This document shows positions 8,705-64,000 of a DNA stretch of 64,000 nt, piece after piece. The notes under the pieces were generated by a model. It ran no database searches. It had not been told where the DNA came from and saw only the letters and a program-made list of their open reading frames with translations. Both the position numbers and the translations under genes were made by a program. Each line of letters begins with the position of its first letter. The first letter of the stretch is position 1. This DNA is from Cyanobacteria bacterium P01_F01_bin.150 (GTDB taxonomy: Bacteria; Cyanobacteriota; Cyanobacteriia; CAKZMO01): positions 125,020 to 189,019 of the forward strand of contig JBCCYL010000001.1 in assembly GCA_039189765.1 (NCBI GenBank), read 5' to 3'.

Positions 8705-11700
8705 ATGCCAGTCGTTAGTTTAAGTACAAGTACCAATTTCAGCGGGTCAGAAAACGCCCTAATTGAAAATGAAGGTACAGAGCTAACTCTCACATTTAGC
8801 CTTGATGAGCCAGCGCCTGCTGGAGGGCTAAAGGTCTACGTTGACAGTGATGTTCCAGAAATCCTAAATCGCCTCAATCTAATTTTGTTGGCGTTTGACC
8901 CTTCCAGATTATCTAATCTGACTGCCAGTCAAGCAGCCTTTACAGATTTTTCTAACAGTGGATTCACCGCCACCATTAATGCGGGTGCCACTGAAGCTTC
9001 GGTCACTGTTCCGGTTTTCGATACAAATGAGTCGACCCCTGATCCCTTTTTCCCGGATACTTATGACGGATTAACGACAGCGACCTTTACGCTTAAGACG
9101 CGAGACCAGATCGACTCCGTTGACGAAACAAGTCCCAGAGGGAATACCGGAAACGATTTGGCGGCGATAGAGAACGATGGCGTTCCCGTAAGTGACTACA
9201 CCATTGGTACCGCGTCCAGCACCGTTCTATTTGTAGATGATGTCAGTCAGCTGCCTTCTGACCCCACACCCACACCCCCTCCCACACCCCCTCCCACACC
9301 CCCTTCGCCAGCGAACGGCTACGATGAAGCGACCAGTGGCGATATTTCTGATAATCCTTCTAATCCCATTGAGCTGGATCTTGCAGAAGGAACGACTCAA
9401 TTGTCTGCAACGACAGGCGGTGGTGATCAGGAATATGTAACCGTAACGGTTCCTGATGGCACTCAGCTTGATTCCATTACCGTGGACTCCTATTCCACTG
9501 GGGATGTGGCCTTTATCGGTGTTCAGGAAGGCAGCACCTTTACTGAGCCACTAGATAATAGTGCTGATGTGGGTGAGCTGCTTGGCTATGCCTTGTTTGA
9601 TAATGGCGACGAAGGGACTGACATTCTAGACAACATCGGTAGAGGTGATGGCGCAGAAGGGTTCACAGGTCCTTTGCCCAGCGGTACCTACACGTTTGCC
9701 CTTCAACAGTTGGGTGCCAGCAGCGACTACACTCTAGACTTTAATGTCTCTGAAGCGTCTGCTCCAACCCCCACTCCTCCTCCCACTCCAACCCCTACCC
9801 CTCCTCCTTCTGGTCCTCCGGTCGTCAGCTTTGAAGCTGTCCCGGCAACGATTTCTGAAGAAGCCCCCGCTGAGGATCGGCTGCTAAGGCTGGAGTTTTC
9901 TGTTGCTGGAGAAATTCCTGAAGGTGGTCTAGTAGTTCTCTTCGAAAACCTCTTTGGCATTACCGATCAGGCCGATAGCGAAGCTGAAGGAGCCGCCTTT
10001 GAAGGTTTAGGTCTAGCACCACCTTTTGACCAGGAAAATAATATTATCGGTATTCGCCTATTAGAAAACCAAGCTGCAATCCAGCTACCGATGATTAACG
10101 ACTTGGTTGAGGAGACAACCACGTTTGACTTCCGCTTGCTTGAGGGCGAGGGCTATGAGCTTGATCCGGACCAGAATGCAACGCTGTTCACCATCACTGA
10201 CGACAATGGTGGTCCCGGTGTTGGTCCGACCATCGGCTTATCGGTATCTGAAACCAACCTGGCAGAAGGTGATACCTTTACGGTCAACTTTGCAGTTGAT
10301 GGCACGATCCCAGCCGGGGGCATTGATGTCCTAGTAACAAGCGATGAAAGTGTTGCGGGTCCCCTTGGGCAGTTTGAATTGTCTAATCTTGAGACACTAC
10401 AGCTCTCTGGTGTTAGCAACCTGCGCCCCGGAGACGACCGTGGTCAAAGCTTTATTGCCACTATCACTGAGGCTAATGCATCAATTACCCTATCTGTCTT
10501 TGATGACATTATTGCAGAGGAACCGGTTGACATTCCATTTATTTTAGCCAACGGTGAGCTTTACGAAGTAGACCCCAACGCGGCTGACGTAACCCTAACC
10601 ATTTCTGATGAACCCCAACCCGTTGGTCCTACGGTTGGTATTTCCCTTGACAAGACCGACGCAGTTGAAGGGGATTCAGTCACTCTATCGTTCAATGTTG
10701 AAGGGGATATTCCTGACGGCGGCCTTACGGTTCTAGTTAACGACACCACTAGTGCTCGCACTGGTGCCAGAAGTCTAACTGAATTTGATATTGCCGGAGT
10801 TCAGCTCAGTGATGGCATTGATGGATTCCCCATTGCGGCTGAAGGCGACAGCGGTTTCTTCGTTACGTTAACTGCTGCAAATGCCAGCATCACTCTACCC
10901 GTAATTGATGACGGTGCAGATGAGGATGAGGCGCTAGAGATGTTCACCTTTGAGGTCATTGATGGTGAAGCCTATGAAGTCAGTGCTGATGCGGGTAGCG
11001 TAACGCTAAATATCAGCGATGCGGCACCTGTTGCCCCAACGGTCAGCCTGAGCACTGATGTGACTACGCTGATTGAATCCGAAGGGACGATTGTCACCTT
11101 TACCCTAGAAACATCCGGCACTCTTCCTGAGGTTGTCCTGGATGAGGATGGTGACTATGTCTCCGGTGGGTTACCTGTAACATTGCAGATTGATTCGGCT
11201 CAACTTGAGTGGTTCTTTGACTTTGACAACAACAGCCGTCCACGGACAAACGCTGAAACTGGTAGCTTCAATGAGGTTCTAGTCCTTGGCGATAACTCCA
11301 CAGGTATTGCTGGCGGTCGCTTGATTGGTACATTGCTGCCACCCGATTTCAACACGGTGGAGCTGACTCTCACAGAGAGCACTGCGTCCTTCCAGTTTGA
11401 AGTCTTTGACGACGTATTTGCTGAAGCGAATGAGGACATTACGTTCACCTTGTTGGGTGGTGATGGCTACGAAGTCGCAGCAGACGCCACTCCTGTAACC
11501 CTGACCCTACAGGATAGTCCTGATGGAACAATTGACGGCACGACTCCTGTTGTTAGCCTATCCGTCGATAGCACTACTGTTGCAGAGGGAGACGCTCTAA
11601 CGGTTACCTTTAACGTGACTGGCGATATTCCTGACGGCGGTCTTCTTGTCTTTGTTGACAGTAATGCCTCTGGAGTACTGGGTGAGTTTAATCCAGACGA

Positions 11701-14700
11701 AGTTGTATTCACAGGCTTGGCGGCACCTCCAGGACCGGATACAGACGCGGGGGGTTTTGCTGCATTGATCAGTGAGAGCACCGCAACAATTACCCTACCG
11801 GTCTTTAAGGATGGTTTGGGAGAAGGGGTAGAGACTTACACCTTCAACATTGTGGATGGTGAAGCCTACGATCCCGATCCGGCAGCTAGCGAAGTGACTC
11901 TTTCCATTGAAGAGACACCTCCAGTGATTTCCGTTGATTTAGTGGGCGGCGTATTTGACGGCAGTGATTTGCTGACGCCTAATCTGGTTGAGGCTCCCGA
12001 AGCAGGCACACCCGTTTTGAGCGTTGTGGTTCAGTCTGATGCGCCTATCCCTGAAGAAGGATTGGTTGTTGATATCAATACTGATCTTGCCGATATCACT
12101 GAATTTGTTGAAGGCTCTAACTTTGTCCCCACAGCCTTTGGTGGCGAAGTCCTCGGTGCTATTTATGATGCCGACGGCAATGCAACTGGCTTGACGGTCA
12201 GAATGGATGCGTTTAATACCGTTATTAACTTTGTCGGTGGCTTAGGCCTAGAGGGCGACGGCCCCCACGAGGTTAACTTCTCTGTGGAGCCAGGCGCAGG
12301 CTATACTCCGGCGGCTGATAGTGCTGGCATTACGGTCTATGACACGATTGACCAGGTTCCAGCGGTTACATCAGTTCCTGAAGTTGGCATCAATATTGCG
12401 GAGCAGCGTCGTCCCCTTTCCGAAGGTAGCGGTGCAATTACCGTGGACTTCACCGTTACCGGTGACATTCCTGATGAGGGCGTTATCGTTTATGTCAGCA
12501 CTGGAGAACGTGCTGGATTGGGCGATTTTGACTTGCTAAATGCAGGGGTTGTTGGCGGTACGTTCCCACCTCCCGATGGAAATGCAGGCGGCTTTTACTT
12601 CAAGATCACCGAGCCGACAGCTAGCATCACCTTGCAAGCGGCTGTGGATGATGAGATTGAAGGGATTGAAGACGTTAACATTGCGATTCAGCCTCTATCT
12701 GGCTACACCATTGCTGATGGTGCGGGTGAAGCAACTGCACTGCTTCGCGAGGGCCGAGGCTCTGAGATTCAGATCAGCCTGGACGGGTCTCCCGATGTTC
12801 TGGTTGAGGAAGAGGGCACGGTTGCAACCGTTGAGCTGAGCTTGAGTGCTCCCCCTCCTGCGGAAGGGATAGAGGTCACGATTGATGCGGCTGAAATGAT
12901 TGAGTTTGATCCTCAGACTCTAACCGTATCAGATGGTGTGATTCCGGTAAGCGCAAATGAAGACAACACTAGCTTCACTATTCTTGTCCAGCAGCAGGAC
13001 GTTAGCCTGAGCGTTGCGATCGCCAACGACGGTGAAGCAGAAGGTCTTGAAACCGCCACCTTTAGTTTGGCAGAGGGAGAGGATTATCAAATCGATCCCG
13101 AGGCTGGGTCCAGCACCTTTACCATTGTGGATACTGCCGCTGATATTCCGGCTGCGCCTATCACTGAGAGCACCCGTAGCTCCCGTGATTCCATTGGTGA
13201 CACCATTGCAGAGGCTGAATCCACTGGTTTAAGTGCTGACAACAGCCGCGTCACGGTTCAAGCCGCTATTAACGGTAACTTCTTTAATGGCGATCGGGTT
13301 CGCACCGATACCACTGAAGATGTGGATATGTATTCGGTGGAGCTATCTGCGGGTGATGTATTGCGTCTTGATATTGATGCTCAAATCAACAGTGATGAAT
13401 CTCCGGATACGGTGCTGCGGCTATTTGACGCCGATGGAAACCAGCTTGCTCAGAGCGATGATGATTTTGCTCCCGATGAGCTGTTTGCTCCTGGTCGTCG
13501 CGATTCCTACATCGAGTTTACGGCTGAAACTGCTGGAACTTACTATGTGGGCGTCAGCAGCTTTGGTAATGGTCTCTTTGACTTCTGGACTAACGACGAC
13601 GGCACGTTTGACAACGATTTCTACGATCCAAACGTAGCGGGTAGTGGTGCCGGTCGTAGCGACGGTCCATACACCCTAAATCTGTCCCTTAATGAAGCAC
13701 CTAATGCAGCAGAAACTGAGATTCCTGCCAGCACGGGTGAAGGGCCAACGGTTTCTCTCTCAGCCACAGCTGCCACCTATGACAGCAGCGACAATCTGAT
13801 TGCTAGCACTTTGGTTCAGTACACGCCGGAATTTAGAAACGCCTCTATTTTGACCCTGAGTCTTGATGTTGATGGTGAAATCCCTGAAGGCGGTGTTGAG
13901 ACCTACATAACCACTGACGTTGACCTTTCTACCCTCTTTAGTACTAGCCAACCCTTCAGCTCAGAGGGCGTAGAAGTGCTTGGGGCAGTGTACGACGATG
14001 CAGGTGCCCCCGTTGGCTTGAAGGTGAATCTCACCACGGCAAGTGGCTTTATTAACCTCAACCTCATTGATCCTGAGGAAGCACCCACCGATGGTGAAGG
14101 GACGATTACCGTTACCCTGGAGCCTGCAGCTGGCTATACCGTGGGTGAAGGGACCTTCTCTGCCACTATCTACGACACGCTAGACGATGTACCTGATTTG
14201 CCAACGGTACCCACGGTTAGTATCTCCGTTAGTGAGACAACGTTAATTGAGTCTGAGGGCAATACTACAACCCTTACTTTTGAACTCAATGAGGCACCTC
14301 CAGCGGGTGGATTGACGATCAACGTCGACAGCGGTGTGCGTGCAGCCTTGGGTGAGTTTGACGTGTTTAATGCTGAGATTGAGGGCGGTAATTTCCCCTC
14401 CCCCAACTTCCGCGCCAGCGGTTTCTTCTTCACCATGACGGAGCAAACCGCAACTATCACCCTAGCCGCCTTTGACGAAACCACTAATCCAGAAATCTCG
14501 GCTGAAAATGCACTAGAAGGAATTGATGAGTTTACGTTTACCGTGCAGCCAGGTGCTGGCTATGCCATTGCTCCCAATTCCAATGCGGTGACCGTAACCA
14601 TCGCGGATAATCCTGACTCGGTTGTCCTGCCTGATGACGATGGTAACGACGACGGTGGCTCTGATGCTGGCGGTTTGACTGAGAGCGAATTTAACGACAC

Positions 14701-17700
14701 CATTGCAGATGCGATGGACACTGGTCTTAGCTCGACGAGCCCAATCTTTAGAGTTAATGGTGAGATTGATAACAGTCGTCAGACTCGCAACTTTGTTGAT
14801 GCTACTGAGGACGTTGATATCTACGCCATCACTCTAGAGGCTGGCCAAGTGGTCATTCTAGACGTAGATGGCGGCGGTACTGGCGATGCGGGTGTAGAAG
14901 GGTCCTTGCTTGATAACATCCTGCGGGTGTTTGATGCAGATGGCAACGAAGTCGCTATCAATGAAAATGGTGGTGCACCAGATGAAGTCTTCCAAGCTAA
15001 CGGTGATGCTTATCTGGAGTTTGAAGCACCTGCGGCGGGTACCTACTATGTGGGAATTAGCAACCTAGGTAACAACTTCTACGACCCCAACGTTCAAGCT
15101 AGCGGCAGCGGCTGGGAGTTTGAAGATCGCTTTGAGCCTGGTCCTTACAGATTTACGGCAACTCTGAAAGGGGCTGTTGCTAATGATAACGACAGCGTTA
15201 GCGGCAACGATGACACCATCGCCAACGCTCAGACTCTAGACCTAACGGCAGACAACCCCAACATCTTGGTTGAAGCGGCGTTTGAACAGCGCTATTTGGA
15301 TCGTAGCAACACCGTGGATGCCACTGAAGATGTGGATATGTTTGCGGTCCAGCTACAAGCGGGTGATGTTATCACTGTCGATGCGGACTCTGTACTGGTT
15401 GACTTTGACGGCTTCCCCTCCGGCCCTGCTCCTGATATCACTATCTTTGACGCCAATGGCGACAGAGTGGTAATTGGTCAAGATGAGAATGGTGAAGATA
15501 TCGTTGCTTACTCCCGTATCGGTGGTGCTCCTGATGAGGCCTTTATTGCTGGACGCGATGGCTATATCGAGTTCACAGCCCCTGAAACCGGCACGTACTA
15601 CATCGGTGCATCCCAGTATCGTAACGATAGCTACGATGCAAACGTGGTAGGCAGTGGTTCCGGTGCGGTCTTTAGTCCTCGTTTCGGCGTTCTAGCGGGT
15701 GGTGAATACACTCTAAACATTCAGCTCAACCCCGAAGGGTTTACGGGTGACGTGTACGAAGCATTCGACGGTACCCCTGCGGATGATGCACCTACGGTAA
15801 GTTTCACGACGACTGGTGGAACCTTTGCCCGTGGTGATGTCCTTGTCTCTGACCAGATTATTGAGTCTGAGGATGCGGGTACGGCAATCCTTGACTTTAC
15901 CTTCAATGTGGATGGTGAAATCCCTGAAGGTGGTCTAGAGGTGTTCGTCACTAGCGACACTGACATGACTACCTACTTCGAGGGATTGTCTTCTAACCCA
16001 CGGGTGGCAGTCGGTGGGGAAATCACTGGTGGTCTGTACAACACGGCAGGCGAACTGATTGGCTTCAAGGCAGTATTAACGGCCAGCAATGCCCGGTTCC
16101 CCTACAATGCGGCCCATCGTGAAGATGATGACCCTACGGCACCAGAGACGCTGACCTTCTCCTTGGCAAGTGGTCCTGCTTACCAGGTAGATGACTCCTC
16201 TTCCTCTTCTGCGGTTACCTTCTACGACGACCTGACGCAAGTTCAGGCCAGTGGTGGCCCTGTCCCTGAAGTGGCGATCGCGGTCGATACCAACGAACTG
16301 ATTGAGTCCGAAGGCACAGAATTGACGCTGACGGTGAACGTCACAGGCGACATTCCTGCCGAAGGTTTGTTGATCGCCATGGACGGTCAAGTCCCTGGCA
16401 CAGAAGATTCAGCACGTGGCTTCCTGGGTGAGTTCGACGTATTCAACGCCGAAGTAACTGGTGGTCCATTCCCATCTCCCAACGGCAGCGCCAGCGGCTT
16501 CTTCTTCCGCGTCTTTGAGAACACTGCAACGATTAAGCTACAGGTATTTGATGAGACCACCAATGATCAGATTGCACCGGAAGATGCCCTGGAGGGTGTA
16601 GAGGACTTCACCTTCTCTGTATTGGCAAGCGATGCTTACACCATCGACGCAACCGCCAGTTCGGTAGACATCACCATCAAGGACAACCCTGATTCTGTGC
16701 CTTTGACAGATGATGGTGGCGATGGTGGCAACGGTGGTGACGGTGGTGCAACCGATGGTCCTATCACCGATAACGATGGTCGTAGCACTATTGATGACAC
16801 CATTGAGACCGCTAATCCGACTGGTTTGAGTCCAAATCAGACTGAGGTTAGTATTGAAGGCTCCATTGCTGTTCGCTGGCGGAATGCGGCGGAACAACGG
16901 GCTGACAACACTGAAGACGTGGATATGTACTCCTTCGACTTGGCTGCGGGTGAAACCGTATCCATCGATGCGATGTCTGTACCGTTTGAGCTAGATGGCA
17001 CCACCCAAGTGACGGCTCCTACGCTGCGAGTATTCAACGCTGCAGGTGAAGAGCTGGCCATCAGCGGTAGTGAAGTAGGTGGTCCTGTGGTAGCAGACCC
17101 CTCCCTTGAGTTCACTGCAACTGAAGCGGGTACCTACTATGTGGGTGTCTCCCAGTATCTGAACGATAACTATGATCCAGCTGTAAATGCCAGTGGTGAT
17201 GGTGTTCAGTTAGTGGATGAAGGCATTAGTCCTGGAGAATACACGCTCAATCTGTCATTGACCACTGATCAGCCAGCGGTTCCTGTTATCAGCATCAACA
17301 TTGAGCCAGACGTGCTGTCTGAGGAAGATGCCGATGATACGTTGGTTAGCGTCGGATTTAACGTTGATGGCGAGATTCCAGAGGGTGGCCTATCGGTGCT
17401 TGTTACCGGCAGCGTCAATATCCTTGACCAGGCAGATGGCGCACGGGACATCGTGTTTGATAATGCGGTTCTTGGTGAGTTCTTCGATCCTGCTACTGGT
17501 ACTTTTGAAGTCATTGTTTCCGATAACAGTGGAGCAATCATTCTGCCTATCTTGAACGACATTATTCAGGAAGCGGATGAGGATTATACCTTCACCATCA
17601 TTGAGAACGATGGGTCCATCGACTCCACCTATGCGGTCGATGCAGATGCTAGCACTGATACCTTCACATTGATTGATGGTAACGGTGGCCCTGGCGTTGG

Positions 17701-34690: not shown

Positions 34691-34732
34691 TTGACGTTTA
34701 TTGATTCTAGTAATTTACAGGACCCTACTTCC

Positions 34733-52010: not shown

Positions 52011-52094
52011 AATTTCCTCGTTCCCAGCGTCTCGCCTGGAACATCGTGTTTCTTATAACGTTGCACTATTTTGGATTCTGGAGAAAATCAATTT

Positions 52095-54872
52095 ATGGTA
52101 CAGATTAGTCTGTCCACATCAACCACATTTGATGGTGATCTGAATGCTCTCGTTGAAGATCAAGGGACATTGTTAACAGTTCGATTCGACTTGGATGACG
52201 CTGCCCCTGCGGATGGGTTAAGAGTCTTCTTGGATAGTGAGGTTCCAGGCATCCTTAATCGTCTCGATTTTGCCGCATTGGTAGCAAATCCCCAGCTTGA
52301 AAATATTGATTTTTTCCCACTTCCTCAGAGAAATGATGACCGATCCGGTGTTGCACTCACCATTTCTCCGGGGGCAGAATTTGCCACGTTTACCATTAAT
52401 ATCCGCGATGATGAAGACACGGTACCGCCGCAGGAACTTTTCGATGGCTTGGTAGAAGCAGAATTTTCAGTGATTACGGCGGACCAAATCCTGCCTGAAG
52501 ATCAAGCCTCCATTGTTGGCATTAGTGACTACACGGTCGATGCCAATGCGGCCAGCAGTACGGTACTGTTTGTCGATACGGAGAGTCAGCTACCAGGTAA
52601 TTCGCCTGAACCGCCTGATTCGCCTGAGCCACCTGAGCCACCCACACCACCCACACCGCCTGAGGCACCGAGCAACGTGGACCCTGTGGCGAATAATGAT
52701 GCCTACAGTGCAACAGCGGGTGAAACCCTAGTCGTTGATGCGGTGACGGGCCTGCTAGCCAACGACAGCGATGGGGATGGGGATAGTTTAACGGTGGCGA
52801 TCGCCTCCGATGCCACCAACGGCAGCGTTTCCCTCAACGATGACGGCTCCTTTAGCTACACCCCCAATGCTGACGTTGTCGGCGTTGACCGCTTTAGCTA
52901 CACCGTTAGCGATGGCAACGGCGGCAACGATACCGCTGATGTGTCCATTAACGTTATGGCCGAACCAAGTGAGCCACCCGGCGGTAGCTTGGAGACACCT
53001 CCGGGCATTCTTCTTTCTGTAAATCCTGATAATCCAACACCTCCTGGTCCTGAATTTAGTGGGTCTCCTGCTGAATATGCAACGGCATTGGTTGCCAAGG
53101 AGATCTCGACTCGAGTGTTCGGGGCAAATGGGGATATCCAACCCACTCTCGCGACCGAAGTCACACTGCTGGGGCTTGCAGCTTCAGGATTCAATCCCAG
53201 TCTTATAGAAGTAACCATAGACGAGATCCAACAGACCGTAACCGTCTCCCATCCAGGCCTACCAGACCGCACCGCCATCTATACTGAATCCCAGGGGTCT
53301 ATCATCTTACCGGTCGGCGTGAACGACCTTGCCTTCACGCCCCAGACCATTGAGTGGTTAGGACCCCCTGAAGATGCCCTCTGGCCGTTGGGAGAGACCA
53401 TCGTCGAGGGCGACAGTCTGATCGATACAGCAGCTCTGGAGGCAGCGCTCGATACCCACATAGAACGGACAGGAATACGGGCGATCGCCGTAGTCCATGA
53501 AGGAGAGCTAGTGGGGGAGCGGTACGCACCAGGATACGGTCCATTTGTTCCACAACGTGCCTGGTCCACGGGCAAGAGTGTGGTCGCTACGGCCATTGGC
53601 CGCCTGATTGACCAGGGATATCTCGACCTCGATCAAACGGTTCCAGTCGAAGCGTGGGCGAACGACGAGCGCCAAGAGATTACCCTTCGCAATTTGCTGA
53701 ACATGTCCAGTGGGCTTGATCAACAGTTCGACCGAAGTTTAACTGCCTTTTTCTCTCCCGACAACGAGCATACGTTTATTTACAGCGAAGGATTTGACAC
53801 CGTCGCTGATGCGGTAGAAGTTCAGCCAGGCGCATTTGCTCCCGGTACCGAATACGCCTACCGCAACGCCAATCCGCTGATTGCCACCGCTGTTGCCCGT
53901 CTTGTCTTTGCCGAAGCGACGTCCCAGGATGAGTTGGCTTTCTTTGCCCGTGAAGTCTTTGAACCCCTGGGCATGCGGTCGTCTTTTATTGAGACGGATC
54001 TCCACGGCAACTTCCTCTCCTCAGGCGCATTCTTTTCAACCGCCCGCGATCTGGCACGGCTGGCGCTGGTGCATTTGCAAGAGGGCGAGTTTGGGGGAAC
54101 CCAAGTATTGTCCGAGGAGTGGACTAACTTTGTATATCAACCCTCACCCGGTCGTGAGGACTTTGGTGCCTATTGGCGAAACAATATCAATGGTGCATTG
54201 GATTTGCCCACCGATGCCTTCTTTGCCAGCGGTGGTTTTGGACAGAGGGCGATCGCCATCCCCAGCCGGGATTTGGTGATCTCTCAGCTTGCCTTTGATC
54301 CGTTTACGGATGATCAAAATTTTGAGCTTTTCGTAAATGAAGTTGTGGGCATTGTTGATGCGATCGCTCCTATCGATGAAGTTGTGTACGACTTCGAAAC
54401 CAGTAGCCAGGGAGAACTGAAATCAGGAGATGTGGTAACAGATCAATTTGAGGGTCTAACCATTGAAGCGGCCGATGACCTATCTGCCATGATTTTTGAT
54501 AGCGCAAATCCCACCGGAGGCGATCAGGATTTGGCCAGTTCAACCTTGGGCAATATCCTGATCATCTCTGAAGATGGTGACTCTGCCGACCCAGACGATA
54601 ATGCCAAGGGAGGGACCCTGATGTTTGACTGGGATGGGGTAGTAAATATAGAGAGTCTTGGCCTCCTGGATATTGAGGAGTCAGGCGGTACCGTTACCCT
54701 GTATGGAGTCGATGATGCCACGGTGCTAGCAACGATTGATATTCCTGGACTGGACGATAATAGTTTCCAATCCCTCGATATCGGTACCGCTGATGTGGGC
54801 AAGATGGACGTATTTATGGTGGGTAGTGGAGCTATTACCGATATTCTAATAGCGGAAGATAGTGCTTCGTAA
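52095..54872 (+). CDS. Family paralog (~925 aa): shared N-terminal domain, cadherin-like/Big domain, beta-lactamase-fold serine hydrolase domain, family C-terminal domain
   Basis: The ORF is open from 52071, but ATG 52095 (MVQISLSTSTTFDGD) aligns with the paralog starts and has GGAG upstream. The cadherin-like segment is NVDPVANNDAYSATAGETLVVDAV...DRFSYTVSDGNGGNDTADVSINV. SxxK is WSTGKS and YxN is YRN. The tail is ...VGSGAITDILIAEDSAS*. Confidence 0.8.
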   Translation: MVQISLSTSTTFDGDLNALVEDQGTLLTVRFDLDDAAPADGLRVFLDSEVPGILNRLDFAALVANPQLENIDFFPLPQRNDDRSGVALTISPGAEFATFTINIRDDEDTVPPQELFDGLVEAEFSVITADQILPEDQASIVGISDYTVDANAASSTVLFVDTESQLPGNSPEPPDSPEPPEPPTPPTPPEAPSNVDPVANNDAYSATAGETLVVDAVTGLLANDSDGDGDSLTVAIASDATNGSVSLNDDGSFSYTPNADVVGVDRFSYTVSDGNGGNDTADVSINVMAEPSEPPGGSLETPPGILLSVNPDNPTPPGPEFSGSPAEYATALVAKEISTRVFGANGDIQPTLATEVTLLGLAASGFNPSLIEVTIDEIQQTVTVSHPGLPDRTAIYTESQGSIILPVGVNDLAFTPQTIEWLGPPEDALWPLGETIVEGDSLIDTAALEAALDTHIERTGIRAIAVVHEGELVGERYAPGYGPFVPQRAWSTGKSVVATAIGRLIDQGYLDLDQTVPVEAWANDERQEITLRNLLNMSSGLDQQFDRSLTAFFSPDNEHTFIYSEGFDTVADAVEVQPGAFAPGTEYAYRNANPLIATAVARLVFAEATSQDELAFFAREVFEPLGMRSSFIETDLHGNFLSSGAFFSTARDLARLALVHLQEGEFGGTQVLSEEWTNFVYQPSPGREDFGAYWRNNINGALDLPTDAFFASGGFGQRAIAIPSRDLVISQLAFDPFTDDQNFELFVNEVVGIVDAIAPIDEVVYDFETSSQGELKSGDVVTDQFEGLTIEAADDLSAMIFDSANPTGGDQDLASSTLGNILIISEDGDSADPDDNAKGGTLMFDWDGVVNIESLGLLDIEESGGTVTLYGVDDATVLATIDIPGLDDNSFQSLDIGTADVGKMDVFMVGSGAITDILIAEDSAS
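53380..54370 (+). other. Beta-lactamase-family serine hydrolase-like domain inside gene 52095
   Basis: STGK (SxxK), YAYRNAN (YxN) and GGFGQRAIAIPSRDLV (the C-terminal strand typical of the family). The third box is degenerate, so it may be catalytically altered. Confidence 0.5.
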
Positions 54873-55390: not shown

Positions 55391-58300
55391 TTGATAATGA
55401 CAGACGCTCAAAATTCTGAATCTACAGGTGGTCGCAATCTTTCCGGAGCGCTCTATGTTGCGGACCAAACATTAGACACCCTATTGCTGGTTCAAGACTT
55501 AAATGGTGACGGTGATGCCAACGATCCGTCGGAAGCAACCGTGTATTTTGATGGCACAAATGCGTCGGGACTTTTAGAGCCAACGGGCAATATTTTTACA
55601 GTCCTACAGGCCGCAGATGGTTCTGTACTCTATGGTGACGGCGATAGTGATACTGTTTATCGGTTGACCGATACTAACCGTGATGGTGATGCTCTAGATG
55701 CGGACGAGGCCACGGTTTGGTTCTCCTCAGACAATGCAGAGGGTCTGCCGTTGCTGACCCCCAACGGTTTAGCCACAGGTCCCGATGGCGCAGTTTACAT
55801 CACAGAAGCCGATACAGTCGCCACGCCCAATGGTGATTTTATCTATCGCACCGAGGATTTGAACGGTGATGGCGACGCCAATGATGCAGATGAAGCGAGG
55901 GTCTGGTTAGATTTAAAGGCCCTAAATCCTAACTCCTCAGCGTTTGAAATTACCTTTATCGGAGATGTTGCCTACATTATCGATAGTGCAGGTGGTGACC
56001 CCAACGTACTTTATCGAGCGGAAGATGCAAACGGCGACGGAACCATTGACACAAGCGAAGCATCGGTGCTGGTGGACGAAACCATTGTTCCCGTTGATTT
56101 TGGCCTTGCAAGTGACAGTCAAAGTCTTTATGTGGTGGAGCTTTTAGATTTCTCAGAGGCGCAATCTGTCTTTAGAATTGACGACAATAACGGCAGTGCC
56201 ACGGTCACTGAAGTGTGGAACAATACGGCAGTGCCTGATGGCTACCTGTCCTCCGTTGCCTTCTCCATCGCTGCCAGTGATAACGGCATGCTAGCAATCA
56301 CCTCCAACGGTGTTGATCCTAACGAGGACAATATTTTTCAACTAACGGACCTTAACGGCGACGGTGATTACTTTGATGAGGGTGAGACCGTGCCCTTTCT
56401 CTCTCGCCTAGATACTGACACTGTTCCCGAACGACCAAGGGTGGTGGAGTATGCGGCGAATCCCACGCCAATAGTTCCTGGCATTGTTCTTACGGCAACC
56501 GATGCTTACTATACATTCAGCGGTAGTATTAGCTCAAATAGCACTCGCCTGCTGGGGGATAAAGCAACGGCTATTGGGCTGGAGGGATTGGACACTATTT
56601 CGTTTCTACAGTTTGATCCAATGGCGCTACCAGAAACGCTGCTAGACCAGGCATTTAGCGCAACTCTGACCCTAGAGCATGACGCATCTTTGGCTGATTC
56701 GCTAATTCCCGCCACCGACGATCGCCCGGTTATTCTCAGCATCTATGATCTGGATGCACCCTTTGATGACACCAAGCCCGGTGGTAATCTGGCTGACATT
56801 GACTATGGGGAGAATGGGGCAAATGCGATCGCCGTTACATCAGTCGGTGATGATGGCCTATACAGTTGGGATGTCACGGAACTGATAGCAGAATGGGCCG
56901 TTGACACAACTCAAAATGACGGCTTGGCCATTAGCGGGATCTTTGGCAACGAAAACCTGGATGATCGCAACAGCTACGGCATTTTCCACACCGTTGGCTC
57001 TACGGATGGACTCGTGCCGACTTTAACGATCACCCCAAAAGAAGACGATTTGCAAGTTAGTCTATCCACGTCCACCACGTTTGAAGGTGACCTTAATGCT
57101 CTGGTGGAAAATCAAGGAACAGCCATCACCTTTCGCTTTGACTTGAGTGGGCCTGCCCTGGCAGGTGGCCTGACTTTATTTGTTGATGCAGACGTCGAGC
57201 AAATGTTGAATCGGCTGGATTTGCCCACGTTTGCATTTAACCCCATCACTGAAAATATTGACTTTAGAAGCGTTATTCCCAATCGTGACAGCTCCGGCTT
57301 TGTCCTGACTATTGATGAAGGAGCCACTTTTGGCACTGCAACGCTTAACATCTTTGACAATAACGAACCTGAGCCAACCCTTCCCGAGACCTTTGATGGC
57401 CGCGTCGATGCAACCTTCTCCCTAGTTACGGAGGACCAAGTCGATCGCGATATCGAAGGACCGATTCCGACCTTAAGCGACTATACGATCGATCCAGCCG
57501 CCGCCACCAGCGTTGTTATTTTTGCAGACGATATTAGCCAACTTGAAGATCCGACCGATCCTCAGCCTCCCACACCGGGTGACGGCCTCCAGGTTAGCCT
57601 CTTTACCGGGCCAAATTACCTGATTGAAGATGAGGGCACCGTGAGCGCCCATGCCTTTAACGTCACTGGAGGCGTTATCCCTGAGGGTGGCCTGGTGGTT
57701 GCAGTAGACGCCCCCAACCTCAACGAGTTTGATCTAGCAGCGATCTCAGTGGAAGGCGGTTCCATTGAAGCAGTGCGCGATGGCGGCTTTGATTTGCGGA
57801 TGACCGAGTACACGACTCTGGTCAACCTCCCCATTGCCAATGATGGTGAAATTGAAATTGGTGAAACCGCCAGCTTTAGCTTGGCTGCGGGAGATGGCTA
57901 CAACATTGTCGCCGACTACAGCGGCGGCAGCTTTGGCTTGGTGGATACGCGATTGGACATTCCCATGGGCGTGATCAATGAACCCAATAATGCGATCGCC
58001 TTTGCCACCGAGACCCAAATCAGCCCTGAAAACCCCACCTTTTTGGGCACGGATTCAATCTATTTTGATATCGGTAACCGCTATCTTAACGACGATGGCA
58101 CCTACACCTATATCGACTACAGCGAGGACGTAGACGTCTTCAAAGTTGATTTAACCGCTGGGCAGACTATTACCATTGAGACCTTCGACTTTGACACCAA
58201 CGTTGACGAATTTGGCGTCGGTTTTGCCATTAACGCCTTTGTCTACGATGCTGAAGGTAACCAGCTTCAGGACTATATCAATACGGGCTTTGATCCGGCG

Positions 58301-61300
58301 GCGGCCCCCGACAAGCTGTTTGGTGGCCTTGGTCCCTTTGATGTGAATGAAACCGACAGCTACGACGAATTTACTGCGCCCGCAGACGGCTCCTACTTTA
58401 TTGCTGTCGGTGATGATGGCCAGGTGCAGAACTTCTGGGATGTGGTGGCCCCGTTCTATGATCCCAACGTACCGGGTTCCGGTAACGGTAATCGCTCCAT
58501 CTTTGGTGATTACAGCATTGAAATTAATTTAATCACCGACGACAATCCCCGCAAAGTCGGTACCCCCACCCCGCCGGTGAGCAACCCTGGTGTAACGAAT
58601 CCTCCCACCCTGTCCCTAAGCGCGAATCCCACCACCACCAATGGAGACGGCAACTTTATTAATGCGGTGGTGGAACATGTAGACGTGGGTGGTGTGTCCA
58701 GCGTTACCTTTACGATTCAGGCTGAGGGAGAAATTCCGGACGGTGGTATTGAGTTTGTTCTTAATAGCGATGCCAATCTGTTTGATTACGTATCATATTT
58801 AGGCCAAAGCGCCCTGCCCAGCACCATTGGTGGTCAGTCCCTAGGCGCTTACTACAACGCAGACGGCATTCCCACGGGCATCCGGCTGCTGATTGATGAG
58901 CCCTTGATGACCGTCACCTATGAATCGGCCAATAATCAGCCCTGGTTCCCCACTTTCTACGGCAATATTGTGGATCGGTATGAGCCGTTGGAAACTGATG
59001 GTGCAGAGGACGTGACCTTCTTCCTCCAGCCCGGTGAAGGCTATACCATTGATGCTGATGCCGGATCAACCGAGGTCACTTACTATGATTCCGTGGCCGA
59101 TGTGCCCCCTCCCACTACCCCTGGAGGCACGGTGCCTGAAGTGGGGATTACGGTCAGTGAAACAACTCTGATTGAAACCGAACAGACTGAAACAACCTTG
59201 ACCTTTAGCCTCTCTGAAGCACCTCCCGCAGAAGGGCTAACCATCTTTGTTGATAGTGACGACGAGCCTGTGGTGGGGAGTCCCCTCAGCCAGTTTGCCG
59301 TGCTAGAGGCAGAGGTCAGCGGAGGAAACTTCCCGATTCCCAATGCTGATTCTTCAGGCTTCTTTTTCACGGTCACTGAACAAACCGCCTCCATTACCCT
59401 CGCTGTTTTTGATGAGCTAACGGTTCCCAATATTGATCCGCTGACGGTTCAAGAAGGAATCGTTGCCCTTAACTTTGCCCTCCAGCCATTGGCAGGCTAC
59501 ACCATTGATCCAGATGCCAGTGACGTTGGCCTAACGATCGCCGACAATCCCGACTCTGGCATTCAGGTCAGCTTGACGGGTTCCCCAGACACCCTGATTG
59601 AATCAGAGGGGACTGCAGGAGTCCATACCTTTAGCTTGAGTACGCCTCCATCCGCCGAGGGATTAACGGTGAGCGTCAGTGCATCGGCGTTGGATGAGTT
59701 TGATTTGGATGCGATCGCCGTCGAAGGCGGCTCCATTGCAGCCGTGAGCACCGATGGGTTTGACCTTACGATTACCGAGCAGACCGCCACCATTAGCCTG
59801 CCAGTACTCAACGATGGTGTGGATGAAGGGAGTGAAACCGCAAGCTTTGCCCTAGAGGCCAGCGATGACTATGAGCTTAACGCCGCCTTTAATGAAGCCA
59901 CCTTTACCCTAGCGGATACCCTAGACCAGGCGACTGTTTCAGTGGAGAGTGAGCTAATTGGCGATGAAATTAGCAACAGCACAATTCCCGAGGCAAATGC
60001 ATTAAGCGTCAGCAGCAGTAATCCCACCGTATCCATCAATGGTCTGATTGGTGAAAGCTTTAGCGACCTTCCAGAGGACGTTGATTTCTTCTCCTTCGAT
60101 TTGGACGCTGGGCAAACCATTAGTTTAGATATTGACACTGAGGAAATTCTGCCCAACACGATTAACTTCCGGCAGGTCGTGTATCCAGCATTGGCCAATA
60201 TCCTGCAGAAGCCTGATACTGAACTGCGGCTATTTGATGCCCAGGGCAATGAACTGGCATCCAACAATGACGGAGCCGCTGAGGATGAAGACTTCTCCCG
60301 CGATCCCTTCCTTGAGTACACGGCCACGTCTGCGGGCACCTATTATGTAGGGGTTAGCCAGCTTGGTAACCGCAACTACGACCCCTTTGTGTCACGGAGC
60401 GGTAGCGGCTGGACCTTCCCTGAGATTGGCGTAAACAATGGGTTTTATGAGCTGACCGCCACCCTGGAAGATAGCGATTTGGAGCCAGGCCCCTTTGAAA
60501 ACTTGGTTATTTTTGGCGATAGTCTTTCCGATGCAGGCAACGCCTTCCAGATCTCAGACGGTGCAGTTCCTCCATCTCCGCCTTATGTTAACGGACGTTT
60601 TTCAAACGGTGATTTAATCGTAGATTTTATTGCCGAGGCCCTGGGGTTACCCGAAAATGAAAGCTATCTTTTAGGCGGCAGTAATTATGCCTTTGGTGGT
60701 GCCCAGACTGGTGAAGGAACGTCATTTACAGGTACGTTGGAAGGTCTACTTAATCCGGTAGAGGTTCCCAATATTGCCCAGCAAATTGATCTTTACCTGG
60801 CCGATCAGACACCCGCCAACACCGACTTATTCTTTATCTACGGTGGTGGTAATGACTTTATCGCGCCCTTAGCTGCGGGCCAAGGAATACCCACGCCAGA
60901 ATCAGTCGTTGGCAATATTACTGCCCACATTACAGAACTGGCAGAAGCGGGGGCAACAACCTTTGTGGTGCCAAATCTCCCATCCCCAGGCATTAGTCCT
61001 CTATTTGCGGGTCAGCCGCCAGAAGTAAGGGGGCTTCTCAATAATGCAACCGATGCGTTTAATCAACTGCTGGATGTGGAATTGGATGCGATCGCCTCAG
61101 ACCTAGATGTGACGATTCTTGAGCCTGACTTCAACGGCATTGTGGATGATATACTCGCCAATCCCAGTCAGTTTGGTCTGACCAATGTCACTGATTCCGT
61201 GATCGACTTTAGTAGCGGCACCCTGATTGGCAATCCTGATGAATTTTTCTTCTGGGACTTCGTTCATTCCACAACCGCTGCCAACGATATCATTGCGGAT

Positions 61301-62398
61301 GAAGCGATCGAGCTACTATTGGATAACCCTGATCCGGGTCCACCGGCAGGCTTTACGGTCTTTGACTTTGAATGGACTGGCCAAATTGCTGGGTTCAGCG
61401 TGGAGGGTACTTTCAGCTATGATGCAACCCAAACCTTCACCGACGATATTGTTCGCGAAGAGGATCTGCTTGGATTTGATATCTCTTTCTTTGACCCCGA
61501 TGGTAATCTACTGCGGACCTACGAAAATAACCATCTCACGTTCTCTGAGTTCAACTTTGCCTTCGATATCAATAATCAGCAAATTCTGACCGATGGTATC
61601 TTTACCGAACCCGATGGCTTAAACGTTGGGGAGAAGACCGCTGTGGGCGATGGCTTTACGGGGTTAAATCTCTGGAGTAAGTCCAAAGAAACCTCCTCTT
61701 CGCTGATTCATGTAGATGACTGGTCCGATGAATTTGGTTTCCCCTTGGGCTACAGCAGTCACGAAGATATTGCCTTCTTGACCCTGACCACGGCAGAGCT
61801 AATTGAAACGGGCAAGGTGGGTGAAACCTATCTGGATGATATCCAAGATACTCTGACCGAATTGGGCCAGCCGATTCGGGTGGTTCCCGACGGCGGGTTA
61901 GAGGCTGATAGCCTTGATTTTGAATCCAACTTCCAGGGAGAGCTAAGCGCTGGGGATGTGATTACCGATCAGTTTGACGATCTCACCATCGAGGTAGCGG
62001 GTGATTTAACGGCCATGATTTTTGATAGCGCCAACCCAACCGGAGGCGATTACGACCTGCGTAGCGATACGCTGGGTAATGTTTTAATCATCTCTGAAGA
62101 TGGCGACTCAGCAGACCCCGACGATAACGCCAAGGGCGGTACCCTAATGTTTGATTGGGACGGGACGGTAAGCGTGGAGAGCCTCGGTCTTCTCGACATT
62201 GAAGAATCGGGCGGCATGGTTACGCTGTACGGAGCCGATGACAATGCGGTGTTGGCAACTATCGATATTCCTGGATTAGGAGACAATAGCCTCCAGTCTC
62301 TCGATATCGGTATCGCTGATATCGGCAAGATGGACGTATTTCTGGCTGGCAGTGGAGCCATTACTGAAATAATCCTAGCGGAGGACAGCATCGCATAA
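55391..62398 (+). CDS. Giant (2335 aa) family paralog: FG-GAP-like Ca-binding repeats, DNRLRE-like domain, internal copy of the family N-terminal domain, PPC-type domains, embedded GDSL/SGNH esterase-lipase domain, WTGQIAGFSVEG domain, family C-terminal domain
   Basis: DLNGDGDANDPSEATVYF-type repeats occur 4-5 times. The GDSL blocks are FGDSLSDAGN, GRFSNG, GGGNDF and DFVHST (DxxH). The PPC motif is EDVDFFSFDLDAGQTISLDID...TYYVGVSQLGN. The tail is ...AGSGAITEIILAEDSIA*. Confidence 0.85.
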   Translation: MIMTDAQNSESTGGRNLSGALYVADQTLDTLLLVQDLNGDGDANDPSEATVYFDGTNASGLLEPTGNIFTVLQAADGSVLYGDGDSDTVYRLTDTNRDGDALDADEATVWFSSDNAEGLPLLTPNGLATGPDGAVYITEADTVATPNGDFIYRTEDLNGDGDANDADEARVWLDLKALNPNSSAFEITFIGDVAYIIDSAGGDPNVLYRAEDANGDGTIDTSEASVLVDETIVPVDFGLASDSQSLYVVELLDFSEAQSVFRIDDNNGSATVTEVWNNTAVPDGYLSSVAFSIAASDNGMLAITSNGVDPNEDNIFQLTDLNGDGDYFDEGETVPFLSRLDTDTVPERPRVVEYAANPTPIVPGIVLTATDAYYTFSGSISSNSTRLLGDKATAIGLEGLDTISFLQFDPMALPETLLDQAFSATLTLEHDASLADSLIPATDDRPVILSIYDLDAPFDDTKPGGNLADIDYGENGANAIAVTSVGDDGLYSWDVTELIAEWAVDTTQNDGLAISGIFGNENLDDRNSYGIFHTVGSTDGLVPTLTITPKEDDLQVSLSTSTTFEGDLNALVENQGTAITFRFDLSGPALAGGLTLFVDADVEQMLNRLDLPTFAFNPITENIDFRSVIPNRDSSGFVLTIDEGATFGTATLNIFDNNEPEPTLPETFDGRVDATFSLVTEDQVDRDIEGPIPTLSDYTIDPAAATSVVIFADDISQLEDPTDPQPPTPGDGLQVSLFTGPNYLIEDEGTVSAHAFNVTGGVIPEGGLVVAVDAPNLNEFDLAAISVEGGSIEAVRDGGFDLRMTEYTTLVNLPIANDGEIEIGETASFSLAAGDGYNIVADYSGGSFGLVDTRLDIPMGVINEPNNAIAFATETQISPENPTFLGTDSIYFDIGNRYLNDDGTYTYIDYSEDVDVFKVDLTAGQTITIETFDFDTNVDEFGVGFAINAFVYDAEGNQLQDYINTGFDPAAAPDKLFGGLGPFDVNETDSYDEFTAPADGSYFIAVGDDGQVQNFWDVVAPFYDPNVPGSGNGNRSIFGDYSIEINLITDDNPRKVGTPTPPVSNPGVTNPPTLSLSANPTTTNGDGNFINAVVEHVDVGGVSSVTFTIQAEGEIPDGGIEFVLNSDANLFDYVSYLGQSALPSTIGGQSLGAYYNADGIPTGIRLLIDEPLMTVTYESANNQPWFPTFYGNIVDRYEPLETDGAEDVTFFLQPGEGYTIDADAGSTEVTYYDSVADVPPPTTPGGTVPEVGITVSETTLIETEQTETTLTFSLSEAPPAEGLTIFVDSDDEPVVGSPLSQFAVLEAEVSGGNFPIPNADSSGFFFTVTEQTASITLAVFDELTVPNIDPLTVQEGIVALNFALQPLAGYTIDPDASDVGLTIADNPDSGIQVSLTGSPDTLIESEGTAGVHTFSLSTPPSAEGLTVSVSASALDEFDLDAIAVEGGSIAAVSTDGFDLTITEQTATISLPVLNDGVDEGSETASFALEASDDYELNAAFNEATFTLADTLDQATVSVESELIGDEISNSTIPEANALSVSSSNPTVSINGLIGESFSDLPEDVDFFSFDLDAGQTISLDIDTEEILPNTINFRQVVYPALANILQKPDTELRLFDAQGNELASNNDGAAEDEDFSRDPFLEYTATSAGTYYVGVSQLGNRNYDPFVSRSGSGWTFPEIGVNNGFYELTATLEDSDLEPGPFENLVIFGDSLSDAGNAFQISDGAVPPSPPYVNGRFSNGDLIVDFIAEALGLPENESYLLGGSNYAFGGAQTGEGTSFTGTLEGLLNPVEVPNIAQQIDLYLADQTPANTDLFFIYGGGNDFIAPLAAGQGIPTPESVVGNITAHITELAEAGATTFVVPNLPSPGISPLFAGQPPEVRGLLNNATDAFNQLLDVELDAIASDLDVTILEPDFNGIVDDILANPSQFGLTNVTDSVIDFSSGTLIGNPDEFFFWDFVHSTTAANDIIADEAIELLLDNPDPGPPAGFTVFDFEWTGQIAGFSVEGTFSYDATQTFTDDIVREEDLLGFDISFFDPDGNLLRTYENNHLTFSEFNFAFDINNQQILTDGIFTEPDGLNVGEKTAVGDGFTGLNLWSKSKETSSSLIHVDDWSDEFGFPLGYSSHEDIAFLTLTTAELIETGKVGETYLDDIQDTLTELGQPIRVVPDGGLEADSLDFESNFQGELSAGDVITDQFDDLTIEVAGDLTAMIFDSANPTGGDYDLRSDTLGNVLIISEDGDSADPDDNAKGGTLMFDWDGTVSVESLGLLDIEESGGMVTLYGADDNAVLATIDIPGLGDNSLQSLDIGIADIGKMDVFLAGSGAITEIILAEDSIA
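60500..61330 (+). other. GDSL/SGNH hydrolase (lipase/esterase) domain inside gene 55391
   Basis: Block I is LVIFGDSLSD, block II GRFSNGDL, block III YGGGNDF and block V FWDFVHST, all in canonical order. Confidence 0.7.
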
Positions 62399-62410: not shown

Positions 62411-62438
62411 AAGCGGGAGTTGAATCTCCCGCTTTTTG
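62411..62438 (+). terminator. Rho-independent terminator after gene 55391
   Basis: AGCGGGAG-TTGAAT-CTCCCGCT followed by TTTTGCAT. Confidence 0.6.
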
Positions 62439-62480
62439 CATATTTAGTTCAATTAAATTAGCAGTAGGAGAAATCAAAGA

Positions 62481-64000
62481 ATGGTACAAGTTAGCCTTTT
62501 TACGGGTCCCGACTATCTAATTGAAAATGAAAGTACGATTAGCGCCCACGCCTTTCTTGCCACTGACGGCATCATTCCCGCAGGTGGCCTGGTGGTCTCG
62601 GTGGATGCGCCTAGCCTCAGCGAGTTTGACCTTGCAAGCATCTCTGTCGAGGGGGGCGAAATTGTCGCCGTGCGCGATGGCGGCTTTGACCTACGGATGG
62701 ACGAATACACCACCCTGGTGAATCTGCCCATTGCCGATGATGGCGAAGTGGAAATTGGCGAAACAGCTACCTTTAGTCTGGCCACAGGTGAAGGCTACGA
62801 TACCGTTGCCGATTTTAGTGGCGGTACCTTTGAATTGGTAGATACACGAGCCGATATTCCTCAGGGCGTGATTACTGAACCAAATAATATTGCTATTGTC
62901 GCTACCGATACGCAGATTACCCCGGAAAACCCCTCCTTTGTGGGCAGAGATTCTATCTATTTTGATATCGGCAATCGCTACCTTAACGACGACGGCACCT
63001 TTACCTATATCGATTACTTCGAGGATGTCGATCTCTACAAGCTGGATTTAAGTGCAGGTAATACGGTTGCGGTTGAAATCTTTGAGGTTGAAGGCAACTT
63101 ACCCATTGGTATAGCGGAAGGCTTGGCCGTCTTTAATGCCGATGGCGACAAACTGGTTGCCACTTCGGTTATAACCCCTGCTGCTCCCGATAAGCTATTT
63201 GGTGCGGGCGGTAGTCCCATATCTGCATTTAATGAAGATGGTACGGTCAATCTAGATGAAACGGAAAATTATCTAGAATTTACGGCTCCCGAAGATGGGA
63301 TTTACTACGTGGGGGTCTCTAACCTTGCGTCTTCTGTAGTTGAGTACATTGGCGTAAATCGCGAGTACGATATCAATATTCCCGGTTCGGGAGGGTCCAA
63401 TTTAGGCACTTTTGGCAACTACGATATTGAGATTGATCTGCTGACCCCCGATAATCTCCGCAAGACAGGAACGCCAACCCCGCCGGTCAGTAACCCCAAT
63501 GTGACCAATCCCCCCACCTTTTCTTTGGCCGCTACCCCTAACACGGTAGATAGTGACGGCAACTTAATCAATGGCGTCGTCGAAACCGTAGATCCAGGCA
63601 GCGTTTCGACGGTTAATTTCACGATTCGAGCTGAAGGAGACATTCCAGACGATGGCATTGAATTTGTGCTTAACAGTAACGCCAATCTGTTTGACTATGT
63701 TTCATTTCTGGGTCAAGAAAGACTGCCCCAAACCATTGGGGGCCAATCTTTAGGTGCGTTTTATAATGCCGAGGGAATTCCTACCGGAATTCGACTGCGA
63801 ATCGATGAACCGACGATGACAGTCGCCTTTGAAGCGGCTAATCGGAACGAACGATTTATTGACCTGCTTGGCCTCAATGTCACGATCGATGTCTACGAGG
63901 CTTTAGAAACCGATGGCCCAGAAGATGTCACCTTCTTTATCCAGTCAGGAGAAGGCTATGAGATTGCTGCCGATGGGGGCACCGTAGATGTCACCTACTA
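62481..64000 (+). CDS. 5' part of a further family paralog (runs off the window end)
   Basis: ATG 62481 has AGGAG at 62466-62470. MVQVSLFTGPDYLIENESTISAHAF... is near-identical to the internal segment LQVSLFTGPNYLIEDEGTVSAHAF of gene 55391. It continues with a PPC-type motif (FEDVDLYKLDLSAGNTVAVEI) and the SLSANPTT.. module. There is no stop before nt 64000. Confidence 0.8.
   Translation, partial: MVQVSLFTGPDYLIENESTISAHAFLATDGIIPAGGLVVSVDAPSLSEFDLASISVEGGEIVAVRDGGFDLRMDEYTTLVNLPIADDGEVEIGETATFSLATGEGYDTVADFSGGTFELVDTRADIPQGVITEPNNIAIVATDTQITPENPSFVGRDSIYFDIGNRYLNDDGTFTYIDYFEDVDLYKLDLSAGNTVAVEIFEVEGNLPIGIAEGLAVFNADGDKLVATSVITPAAPDKLFGAGGSPISAFNEDGTVNLDETENYLEFTAPEDGIYYVGVSNLASSVVEYIGVNREYDINIPGSGGSNLGTFGNYDIEIDLLTPDNLRKTGTPTPPVSNPNVTNPPTFSLAATPNTVDSDGNLINGVVETVDPGSVSTVNFTIRAEGDIPDDGIEFVLNSNANLFDYVSFLGQERLPQTIGGQSLGAFYNAEGIPTGIRLRIDEPTMTVAFEAANRNERFIDLLGLNVTIDVYEALETDGPEDVTFFIQSGEGYEIAADGGTVDVTY

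Follow-up and report, generated by a model that had tools for sequence, protein, structure and literature searches.

What does a constant C-terminal domain contribute to a series of giant proteins whose remaining parts are mosaics of different modules? The question is raised by a 64,000-nucleotide stretch (referred to here as the window) of a 196.6-kb contig of the metagenome-assembled genome "Cyanobacteria bacterium P01_F01_bin.150," in which eight complete, co-oriented plus strand open reading frames (ORFs) of 933 to 3569 amino acids (aa), taken from the ORF listing, all finish in one ∼165-aa block, designated here the C-terminal domain (CTD). A preliminary description of the locus had suggested that the CTD is a lineage-specific export, anchoring, or self-assembly tag. 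We examined its conservation, predicted fold, relatives, and placement within proteins, and we lean, by a modest preference, toward the CTD being an autonomous, position-independent extracellular ligand-binding module that tethers exoproteins of the type I secretion system (T1SS) type, probably in a Ca2+-dependent manner.

A conserved C-terminal domain on mosaic proteins

The genes of the array, with the position of each CTD and the domains recognized in the cargo, are as follows.

8606..19315, plus strand: giant gene 1, 3569 aa from GTG 8606 (ATG alternative, 8705); CTD, 18818-19312; cargo, four PPC domains, BatD-like, Spondin_N-like
20202..26669, plus strand: giant gene 2, 2155 aa; CTD, 26172-26666, the most divergent copy; cargo, Calx-beta-like, histidine phosphatase, SCP2-like
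28472..34357, plus strand: giant gene 3, 1961 aa; CTD, 33860-34354; product identical to MEM9212783.1 of the same metagenome-assembled genome, annotated as a hypothetical protein
34691..38743, plus strand: giant gene 4, 1350 aa (in-frame ATG alternative, 34733); CTD, 38246-38740; MEM9212785.1, serine hydrolase domain-containing protein, with an N-terminal beta-lactamase-family domain
39841..46287, plus strand: giant gene 5, 2148 aa; CTD, 45790-46284
46466..51967, plus strand: giant gene 6, 1833 aa; CTD, 51470-51964
52071..54872, plus strand: gene 7, 933 aa from TTG 52071 (ATG alternative, 52095); CTD, 54375-54869; cargo, Big_9/cadherin-like and a beta-lactamase-family hydrolase
55391..62398, plus strand: giant gene 8, 2335 aa; CTD, 61901-62395, the copy used for the structure model; cargo, two PPC domains, GDSL lipase
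62481..64000, plus strand: ninth paralog, N-terminal 506 aa only, with the C terminus beyond the window end

A hidden Markov model (HMM) built from the eight CTD copies and run against the six-frame translation of the window gave exactly eight matches, each at an ORF end (E values of 4e-77 to 2e-89), and the positions agreed with those first assigned to within ∼20 nucleotides. Three gene starts had been placed at 8705, 34733, and 52095; these are in-frame ATG alternatives to the ORF starts at 8606, 34691, and 52071. The count of nine CTD-bearing paralogs held for eight. The ninth lies in the window only with its N-terminal part, which is 63% identical to residues 731 to 1229 of gene 8; a query with these 506 aa did not retrieve the full product, and the CTD was present in none of the relatives returned.

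Alignment of the eight copies showed 60 invariant columns and a mean column identity of 77%, with 54 to 75% identity to the first copy. In pairwise comparisons, the proportion of synonymous differences (pS) was 0.41 to 0.88, mostly saturated, that of nonsynonymous differences (pN) was 0.09 to 0.31, and dN/dS ranged from 0.03 to 0.22. Near-saturated synonymous sites and so low a dN/dS mark the window CTDs as old copies that purifying selection has maintained. Recent duplication or gene conversion, considered as the cause of their similarity, was rejected on the strength of the synonymous sites.

Upstream of the CTD, which is joined to each body by a Pro/Ala/Ser linker, the proteins are mosaics in which particular gene pairs have blocks in common at 46 to 91% identity. 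The cargo across the array comprises two beta-lactamase-family hydrolases, a histidine phosphatase, and a GDSL lipase, as well as PPC, BatD-like, Spondin_N-like, Calx-beta, and Big_9/cadherin modules. A constant domain on variable cargo, the central point of the preliminary description, was thus seen in all eight complete genes.

All nine window proteins are extremely acidic (D+E, 17 to 21%; K+R, 0.9 to 3.5%) and contain no cysteine. Their N termini are nonhydrophobic and unlike signal peptides, as judged by a heuristic check and not a dedicated predictor. The strict RTX motif (GGxGxDxUx nonapeptide) and Pfam HemolysinCabind (PF00353) matched none of the eight giants; no PEP motif occurred in the last 40 aa and no match to TIGR02595 or PF07589 was obtained; LPxTG was found nowhere in the nine proteins; and the models of the CTD of the type IX secretion system (T9SS) (TIGR04183/PF18962) gave no Pfam or NCBIfam match to the window CTDs even at an E value of ≤1. 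Motif and library scans therefore bore out the earlier exclusion of RTX, PEP-CTERM, LPXTG, and T9SS signals.

The domain is predicted to fold as a jelly-roll beta-sandwich

An AlphaFold2 model of the gene 8 CTD, computed with 79 diverse sequences, was confident (predicted local distance difference test [pLDDT] score, 94; predicted template modeling score, 0.89). The model is all-beta, with nine strands over residues 3 to 159 arranged as a jelly-roll beta-sandwich of two antiparallel sheets. A shallow model derived from the eight window copies alone reached a pLDDT of 46.6 and was discarded. Foldseek comparison with the PDB returned the carbohydrate-binding modules (CBMs) of a pectate lyase and of Ape1, CBM29, CBM32, CBM6, and CBM4, and fucose lectins, with template modeling (TM) scores of ≤0.52. 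As modeled, the fold of the CTD is the common jelly roll of CBM- or lectin-like binding modules, with no close solved relative; a profile search of PDB sequences with the CTD returned nothing at an E value of ≤10. A near-invariant acidic cluster (D42, D50, D52, E66, D67, D74, D75, and D99 among others) suggests, at the level of sequence, that the domain binds Ca2+.

The CTD belongs to a large family without a curated model

To determine the size of the family, a profile of the 79 diverse sequences was run exhaustively with HMMER against 1.84 billion representatives of 50%-identity clusters. This search yielded 5,353 representatives at an E value of ≤1e-3, 3,975 at ≤1e-10, and 1,425 at ≤1e-30; a word-indexed search gave 472 matches to the CTD. 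Relatives were encoded at 206 places in one-genome-per-species contigs, which span marine cyanobacteria (Elainellaceae, Leptolyngbya, Halomicronema, Okeania, Crocosphaera, and Dapis) and include many Rhodobacteraceae, Pirellulaceae, and Gammaproteobacteria. With relatives distributed across these groups, the domain is not lineage specific, contrary to what had been proposed. Two homologs had eukaryotic links: one was in an MMETSP diatom (Striatella) transcriptome set (P0084), and the other (P0164), of 403 aa, had two domain copies and a eukaryote-like signal peptide. These could reflect contamination or horizontal transfer.

The domain had been described as unrecognised, and no Pfam-A or NCBIfam model matched the window CTDs at threshold; NCBIfam was empty at an E value of ≤1. 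Likewise, no curated model covered the domain in 10 diverse homologs, in which only the PEP-CTERM, RTX, or cadherin parts were recognized. The sole Pfam match to the window CTDs was PF21930, a beta-helical trimerisation domain, at 15 to 17 bits against a cutoff of 27 (E values, 0.008 to 0.024); this identity was rejected because the match is subthreshold and conflicts with the beta-sandwich model. In four homologs, two of them without a PEP-CTERM tail, the second half of the domain matched NF038121 (LEVG-family PEP-CTERM) and, weakly, NF033554 (flocculation protein PepA) in consistent register and below threshold (13 to 40 bits against cutoffs of 80 to 100), and the window copies did not match either model at all. 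We treat kinship with these two families, for which the sequence matches are the basis, as a lead only. The literature yielded no relevant mention of the CTD motif strings NPTGGD, SEDGDS, and PTGGDSDL.

Position within proteins is free across the family and tracks clade

Next, the place of the domain within proteins was examined in near-full copies from 80 genomic loci and the window. The counts were as follows.

Terminal, cyanobacteria: 31 copies (8 in the window and 23 in other genomes)
Internal, cyanobacteria: 16 copies
Internal, other phyla: 11 copies
Extreme N-terminal, Rhodobacteraceae: 9 copies, followed in all complete ORFs by 16 to 26 RTX repeats and then a separate conserved tail
Near-terminal, followed by a 35- to 41-aa acidic tail, mostly Rhodobacteraceae and related Alphaproteobacteria: 9 copies
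Terminal after 15 RTX repeats, Pirellulaceae (locus L052): 1 copy

One protein (L066) carried two tandem copies. Among the best 139 of the 5,353 representatives, 113 had at least two copies, 61 had only internal copies, and 46 had a signal-peptide-like N terminus. The positional constraint expected of a C-terminal sorting tag was therefore not found: homologs were extreme N-terminal, internal, and tandem.

Homologs also carried the domain beside established sorting signals. In proteins of ∼220 to 240 aa, a signal peptide, the domain, and PEP-CTERM followed one another (P0035, P0038, P0047, P0056, P0073, and P0115; PEP-CTERM was confirmed by library scan in P0035, P0056, P0073, and P0115), and P0066 consists of a twin-arginine translocation (Tat) signal and the domain alone. 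In others, the domain began at residue 1 to 3, and what came next was RTX repeats in P0029, cadherin-like domains in P0043, and SdrD-B domains in P0032. Two close relatives from cyanobacteria, L005 and L024, have the domain ahead of RTX repeats and a T1SS-type tail like that of the window gene at 343-1740; the L005 domain shares 58% identity with the copy at 26172 in the window. Since a separate RTX-plus-tail block follows it, the domain in these two relatives is cargo beside a secretion signal and not the signal itself. Together with the CBM- or lectin-like predicted fold, these architectures do not fit a sorting tag; occurrence at any position in secreted proteins from marine bacteria makes a binding or anchoring module likelier than a new sorting signal.

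The same core was invariant or almost so in all positional classes (F7, G18, M39, F41, D42, T47, G48, D50, D52, L53, L62, I63, S65, E66, D67, P73, D74, D75, G79, G80, D99, and S151-G152-A153), and the terminal copies had no clade-specific extension or motif. Position tracked clade, in that nearest-neighbor copies were mostly of the same positional class. Carriers of the 31 cyanobacterial terminal copies are very acidic, mostly lack cysteine, and have exoenzymes as cargo. In other cyanobacteria, proteins of this class have no signal peptide, and their exoenzymes start straight away at the catalytic domain; the cargo in relatives L004, L010, and L027 comprises PhoD, GDPD plus a phytase-like domain, and a purple-acid/metallophosphatase. 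Of two further proteins noted with these relatives, P0008 has a vanadium-haloperoxidase-like domain (PF22778), and P0020 appears 5'-nucleotidase-like by eye only.

Two alphaproteobacterial groups were recorded separately. In proteins of ∼705 to 765 aa from Rhodobacteraceae and related Alphaproteobacteria (L014, L019, L028, L029, L033, L045, L046, L051, and L072), the N-terminal region is conserved (MT..LGCDP..V.I.E), and the CTD homolog and then the 35- to 41-aa acidic tail come after it; these proteins have 5 to 9 cysteines and no RTX. The tail mostly ends in an acidic residue plus hydrophobics (DDVIV, DLLMV, or DVMII), which we take to resemble the protease/lipase-class T1SS motif; the two members scanned (L019 and L029) had no Pfam match. 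Eight RTX proteins of Rhodobacteraceae with the CTD homolog at the N terminus (L032, L041, L044, L049, L054, L071, L073, and L080) all end in a conserved basic tail (...GYxSARRSLKKHEAKLL..), unlike acidic T1SS tails.

Neighboring genes and organization of the array

The other features of the window, all outside the CTD-bearing genes, are as follows.

343..1740, plus strand: small RTX relative of the giants, 465 aa; two N-terminal modules of the giants' kind, RTX repeats, and a T1SS C-terminal block, no CTD
1812-2882, minus strand: DUF3102-family gene
3244-4008: 254-aa ORF with no family match, lying, like the DUF3102-family gene, between the RTX gene and the ABC pair
4012-6024 and 6185-8056: two adjacent fused ATP-binding cassette (ABC) genes of the ABC_membrane_2/SbmA-BacA type, not of the T1SS type, directly upstream of the array
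26958-27620: 2-oxoglutarate-Fe(II) oxygenase gene, PKHD/PiuC-like, 220 aa, lying after giant gene 2 and before giant gene 3, where it breaks the array
46288-46330 (plus strand), 51968-52010, and 62399-62440: near-identical hairpins with core AGCGGG(A/G)G..CTCCCGCTTTT, three of the five described below

The architectures of the gene at 343-1740 and of L005 and L024 show that the protein family of the giants includes classical T1SS-type substrates with RTX C termini. The 7 kb upstream of the window encode a TonB-dependent receptor, an MFS_3 transporter, and a second RTX protein (L081 6191-7207). The ABC_membrane_2 pair was considered as the cognate transporter and rejected as a general association: a homolog (41 to 48% identity) adjoins a CTD gene in 1 of the 80 loci (L005, at the edge) and in none of the other 79. 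No transporter was seen in two further CTD neighborhoods.

The genes had been called terminator separated. A terminator-like hairpin with a T-run lies directly 3' of the stop in five of the eight (after 26669, 38743, 46287, 51967, and 62398), so the description applies to that subset. The near identity of the hairpins after three stops indicates that the 3' flanks of these paralogs are homologous too. Within the bodies, genes 39841 and 46466 have a 590-aa N-terminal block that is 91% identical, far above expectation from CTD synonymous divergence, and genes 28472 and 39841 have a 353-aa C-terminal block that is 89% identical. These common blocks point to recent segmental exchange within the array.

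A probable binding module that may tether exoproteins

In the reading that we favor, the CTD would bind a ligand, probably a glycan of the cell's own sheath or exopolysaccharide, or else a particle or host surface, and this binding would hold secreted enzymes and adhesin-like giants at their sites of action. The window giants, being mosaic, acidic, cysteine free, and without a signal peptide, may leave the cell as T1SS substrates; the lack of a signal peptide, an acidic composition, and few or no cysteines are general hallmarks of such substrates. The distal C-terminal placement of the CTD would mirror that of the ligand-binding regions of RTX adhesins. Of the tag first proposed, the anchoring part thus remains plausible, reread as ligand binding, and within the cyanobacterial clade the CTD may, with lower probability, also serve export. 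On present evidence, what the CTD defines is a new sequence family, as yet uncurated, among the beta-sandwich binding modules of secreted proteins and not a categorically new sorting system.

Several points weigh against a tethering module on T1SS-type proteins: (i) Ca2+ binding is deduced from the conserved acidic residues only; (ii) CAZy-type CBM models in Pfam matched neither the window copies nor the 10 diverse homologs; (iii) the 31 cyanobacterial terminal copies sit on proteins with no RTX arrays (zero or one loose motif match), no signal-peptide-like N terminus, and no other recognizable export signal, a strict terminal position that a pure binding module leaves unexplained; and (iv) no membrane fusion protein, outer membrane factor, or T1SS-type ABC gene was present in the window or the 7 kb upstream. 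T1SS genes are often not linked to the genes of their substrates.

The alternative that survives best, which we consider unlikely but far from negligible, is that in the cyanobacterial clade the CTD is itself a C-terminal secretion and folding element of T1SS substrates and perhaps also binds. An ABC transporter would recognize the unfolded CTD, and Ca2+-dependent folding outside would act as the ratchet usually provided by RTX repeats and signal; the conserved acidic cluster would fit such Ca2+-triggered folding. We retain this alternative because the cyanobacterial position is always terminal (31 of 31 copies, on acidic, RTX-free, signal-peptide-less proteins with exoenzyme cargo) with no other export signal and because of the placements in two other groups, namely, directly before the T1SS-like acidic tail in the RTX-free ∼705- to 765-aa proteins of Rhodobacteraceae and after the RTX repeats of Pirellulaceae L052, the usual place of the T1SS signal. 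However, thousands of proteins carry this domain, its conserved residues unchanged, in an N-terminal, internal, or tandem position, it also travels by Sec/PEP-CTERM and Tat routes, L005 and L024 have a separate RTX-plus-tail block after it, the terminal copies show nothing clade specific, and T1SS machinery is not linked, with the adjoining SbmA-type ABC pair recurring in only 1 of 80 loci. A related proposal, that in a marine filamentous cyanobacterial clade a Ca2+-binding beta-sandwich replaced the RTX block and tail and became a new structured class of T1SS signal, seems to us more doubtful again. If true, this class would deliver phosphatases, lipases, serine hydrolases, and adhesin-like giants and maybe tether them to the sheath, and a domain that suffices for export would widen what counts as a type I secretion signal.

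Self-association is improbable. By this account, the paralogs would co-assemble through the CTD into a common layer outside the cell, for example a sheath, S-layer-like lattice, or fibers, as could be imagined from nine co-oriented mosaic paralogs with one common terminal module (the ninth C terminus being outside the window), from the subthreshold match to the PF21930 trimerisation domain, and from the subthreshold similarity to the NF038121/NF033554 surface proteins. PepA is reported as required for floc formation (PMC9850573). However, the PF21930 score falls far short of its cutoff, the confident model is a beta-sandwich and not a beta-helix, and many family members are single- or tandem-domain secreted proteins and enzymes, as is typical of binding modules. 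Least probable of all is that the CTD binds a small nutrient ligand (corrinoid, metal, or phosphate ester) or is catalytic and serves nutrient capture instead of attachment: the SbmA/BacA-type ABC pair, TonB-dependent receptor, and PiuC-like oxygenase nearby and the phosphorus-scavenging enzymes that dominate the cargo in relatives would suit it, but the Pfam model of DUF4465 (DUF4465/BtuJ corrinoid-binding surface proteins) gave no match, transporter linkage is confined to that single locus, and the conserved residues are mostly loop Asp, Glu, and Gly, apparently typical of structural or lectin Ca2+ sites.

Whether as a tether or as an export element, the domain marks signal-peptide-less cyanobacterial exoenzymes, including phosphorus scavengers (PhoD, GDPD, phytase-like enzymes, and purple-acid phosphatase), and which of the two roles applies matters for the way in which marine cyanobacteria retain scavenged nutrients for themselves. 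At 50% identity, the family comprises more than 5,000 clusters, with no Pfam-A or NCBIfam model at threshold and no solved relative. Curating the family would close this annotation gap and give an assignment to thousands of exoproteins now labeled "hypothetical" in marine cyanobacteria and the Roseobacter group.

Comparison with known systems

In clade, the CTD resembles C-terminal sorting domains (T1SS signals, T9SS CTD, PEP-CTERM, and LPXTG) as a constant end on variable, signal-peptide-less cargo. Unlike these tags, it has no family-wide positional constraint, it is carried as cargo by proteins with PEP-CTERM, RTX-plus-tail, or Tat signals, it is much larger (160 aa with a predicted CBM-like fold), and no tag HMM matches it. 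The T9SS CTD in particular is of the ∼80- to 100-aa Por_Secre_tail type and accompanies an N-terminal signal peptide, whereas the window carriers have none. With the NF038121 and NF033554 families, the domain family has in common that many of its members are small PEP-CTERM surface proteins.

Like CAZy CBM6, CBM22, CBM29, CBM32, CBM35, and CBM61 and the F-type fucose lectins, the domain is joined through linkers to the ends of secreted hydrolases, as one copy or as tandem copies. It differs from them in lacking a Pfam CBM match and in TM scores that do not exceed 0.52, and its cargo consists of phosphatases, lipases, and serine hydrolases and not of glycoside hydrolases.

A further comparison is with the CBMs of RTX adhesins, which form a Ca2+-dependent, C-terminal distal ligand-binding region and bind fucosylated glycans via Ca2+, mediating attachment to diatoms, yeasts, and host cells (PMC12077191; 10.1101/2025.09.30.679566). 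Sequence identity to these CBMs is only ∼10%, and ligand binding by the CTD is a prediction from sequence. Budding from "split" domains, the adhesin CBMs always have RTX repeats and a T1SS signal after them, whereas the window CTD is the protein end and has no RTX. Like the modules of Aeromonas salmonicida (9q5u), AhLap, MpIBP, and FrhA, however, the CTD lies near the distal C terminus of T1SS-type proteins that are giant, acidic, and repetitive and come from aquatic bacteria.

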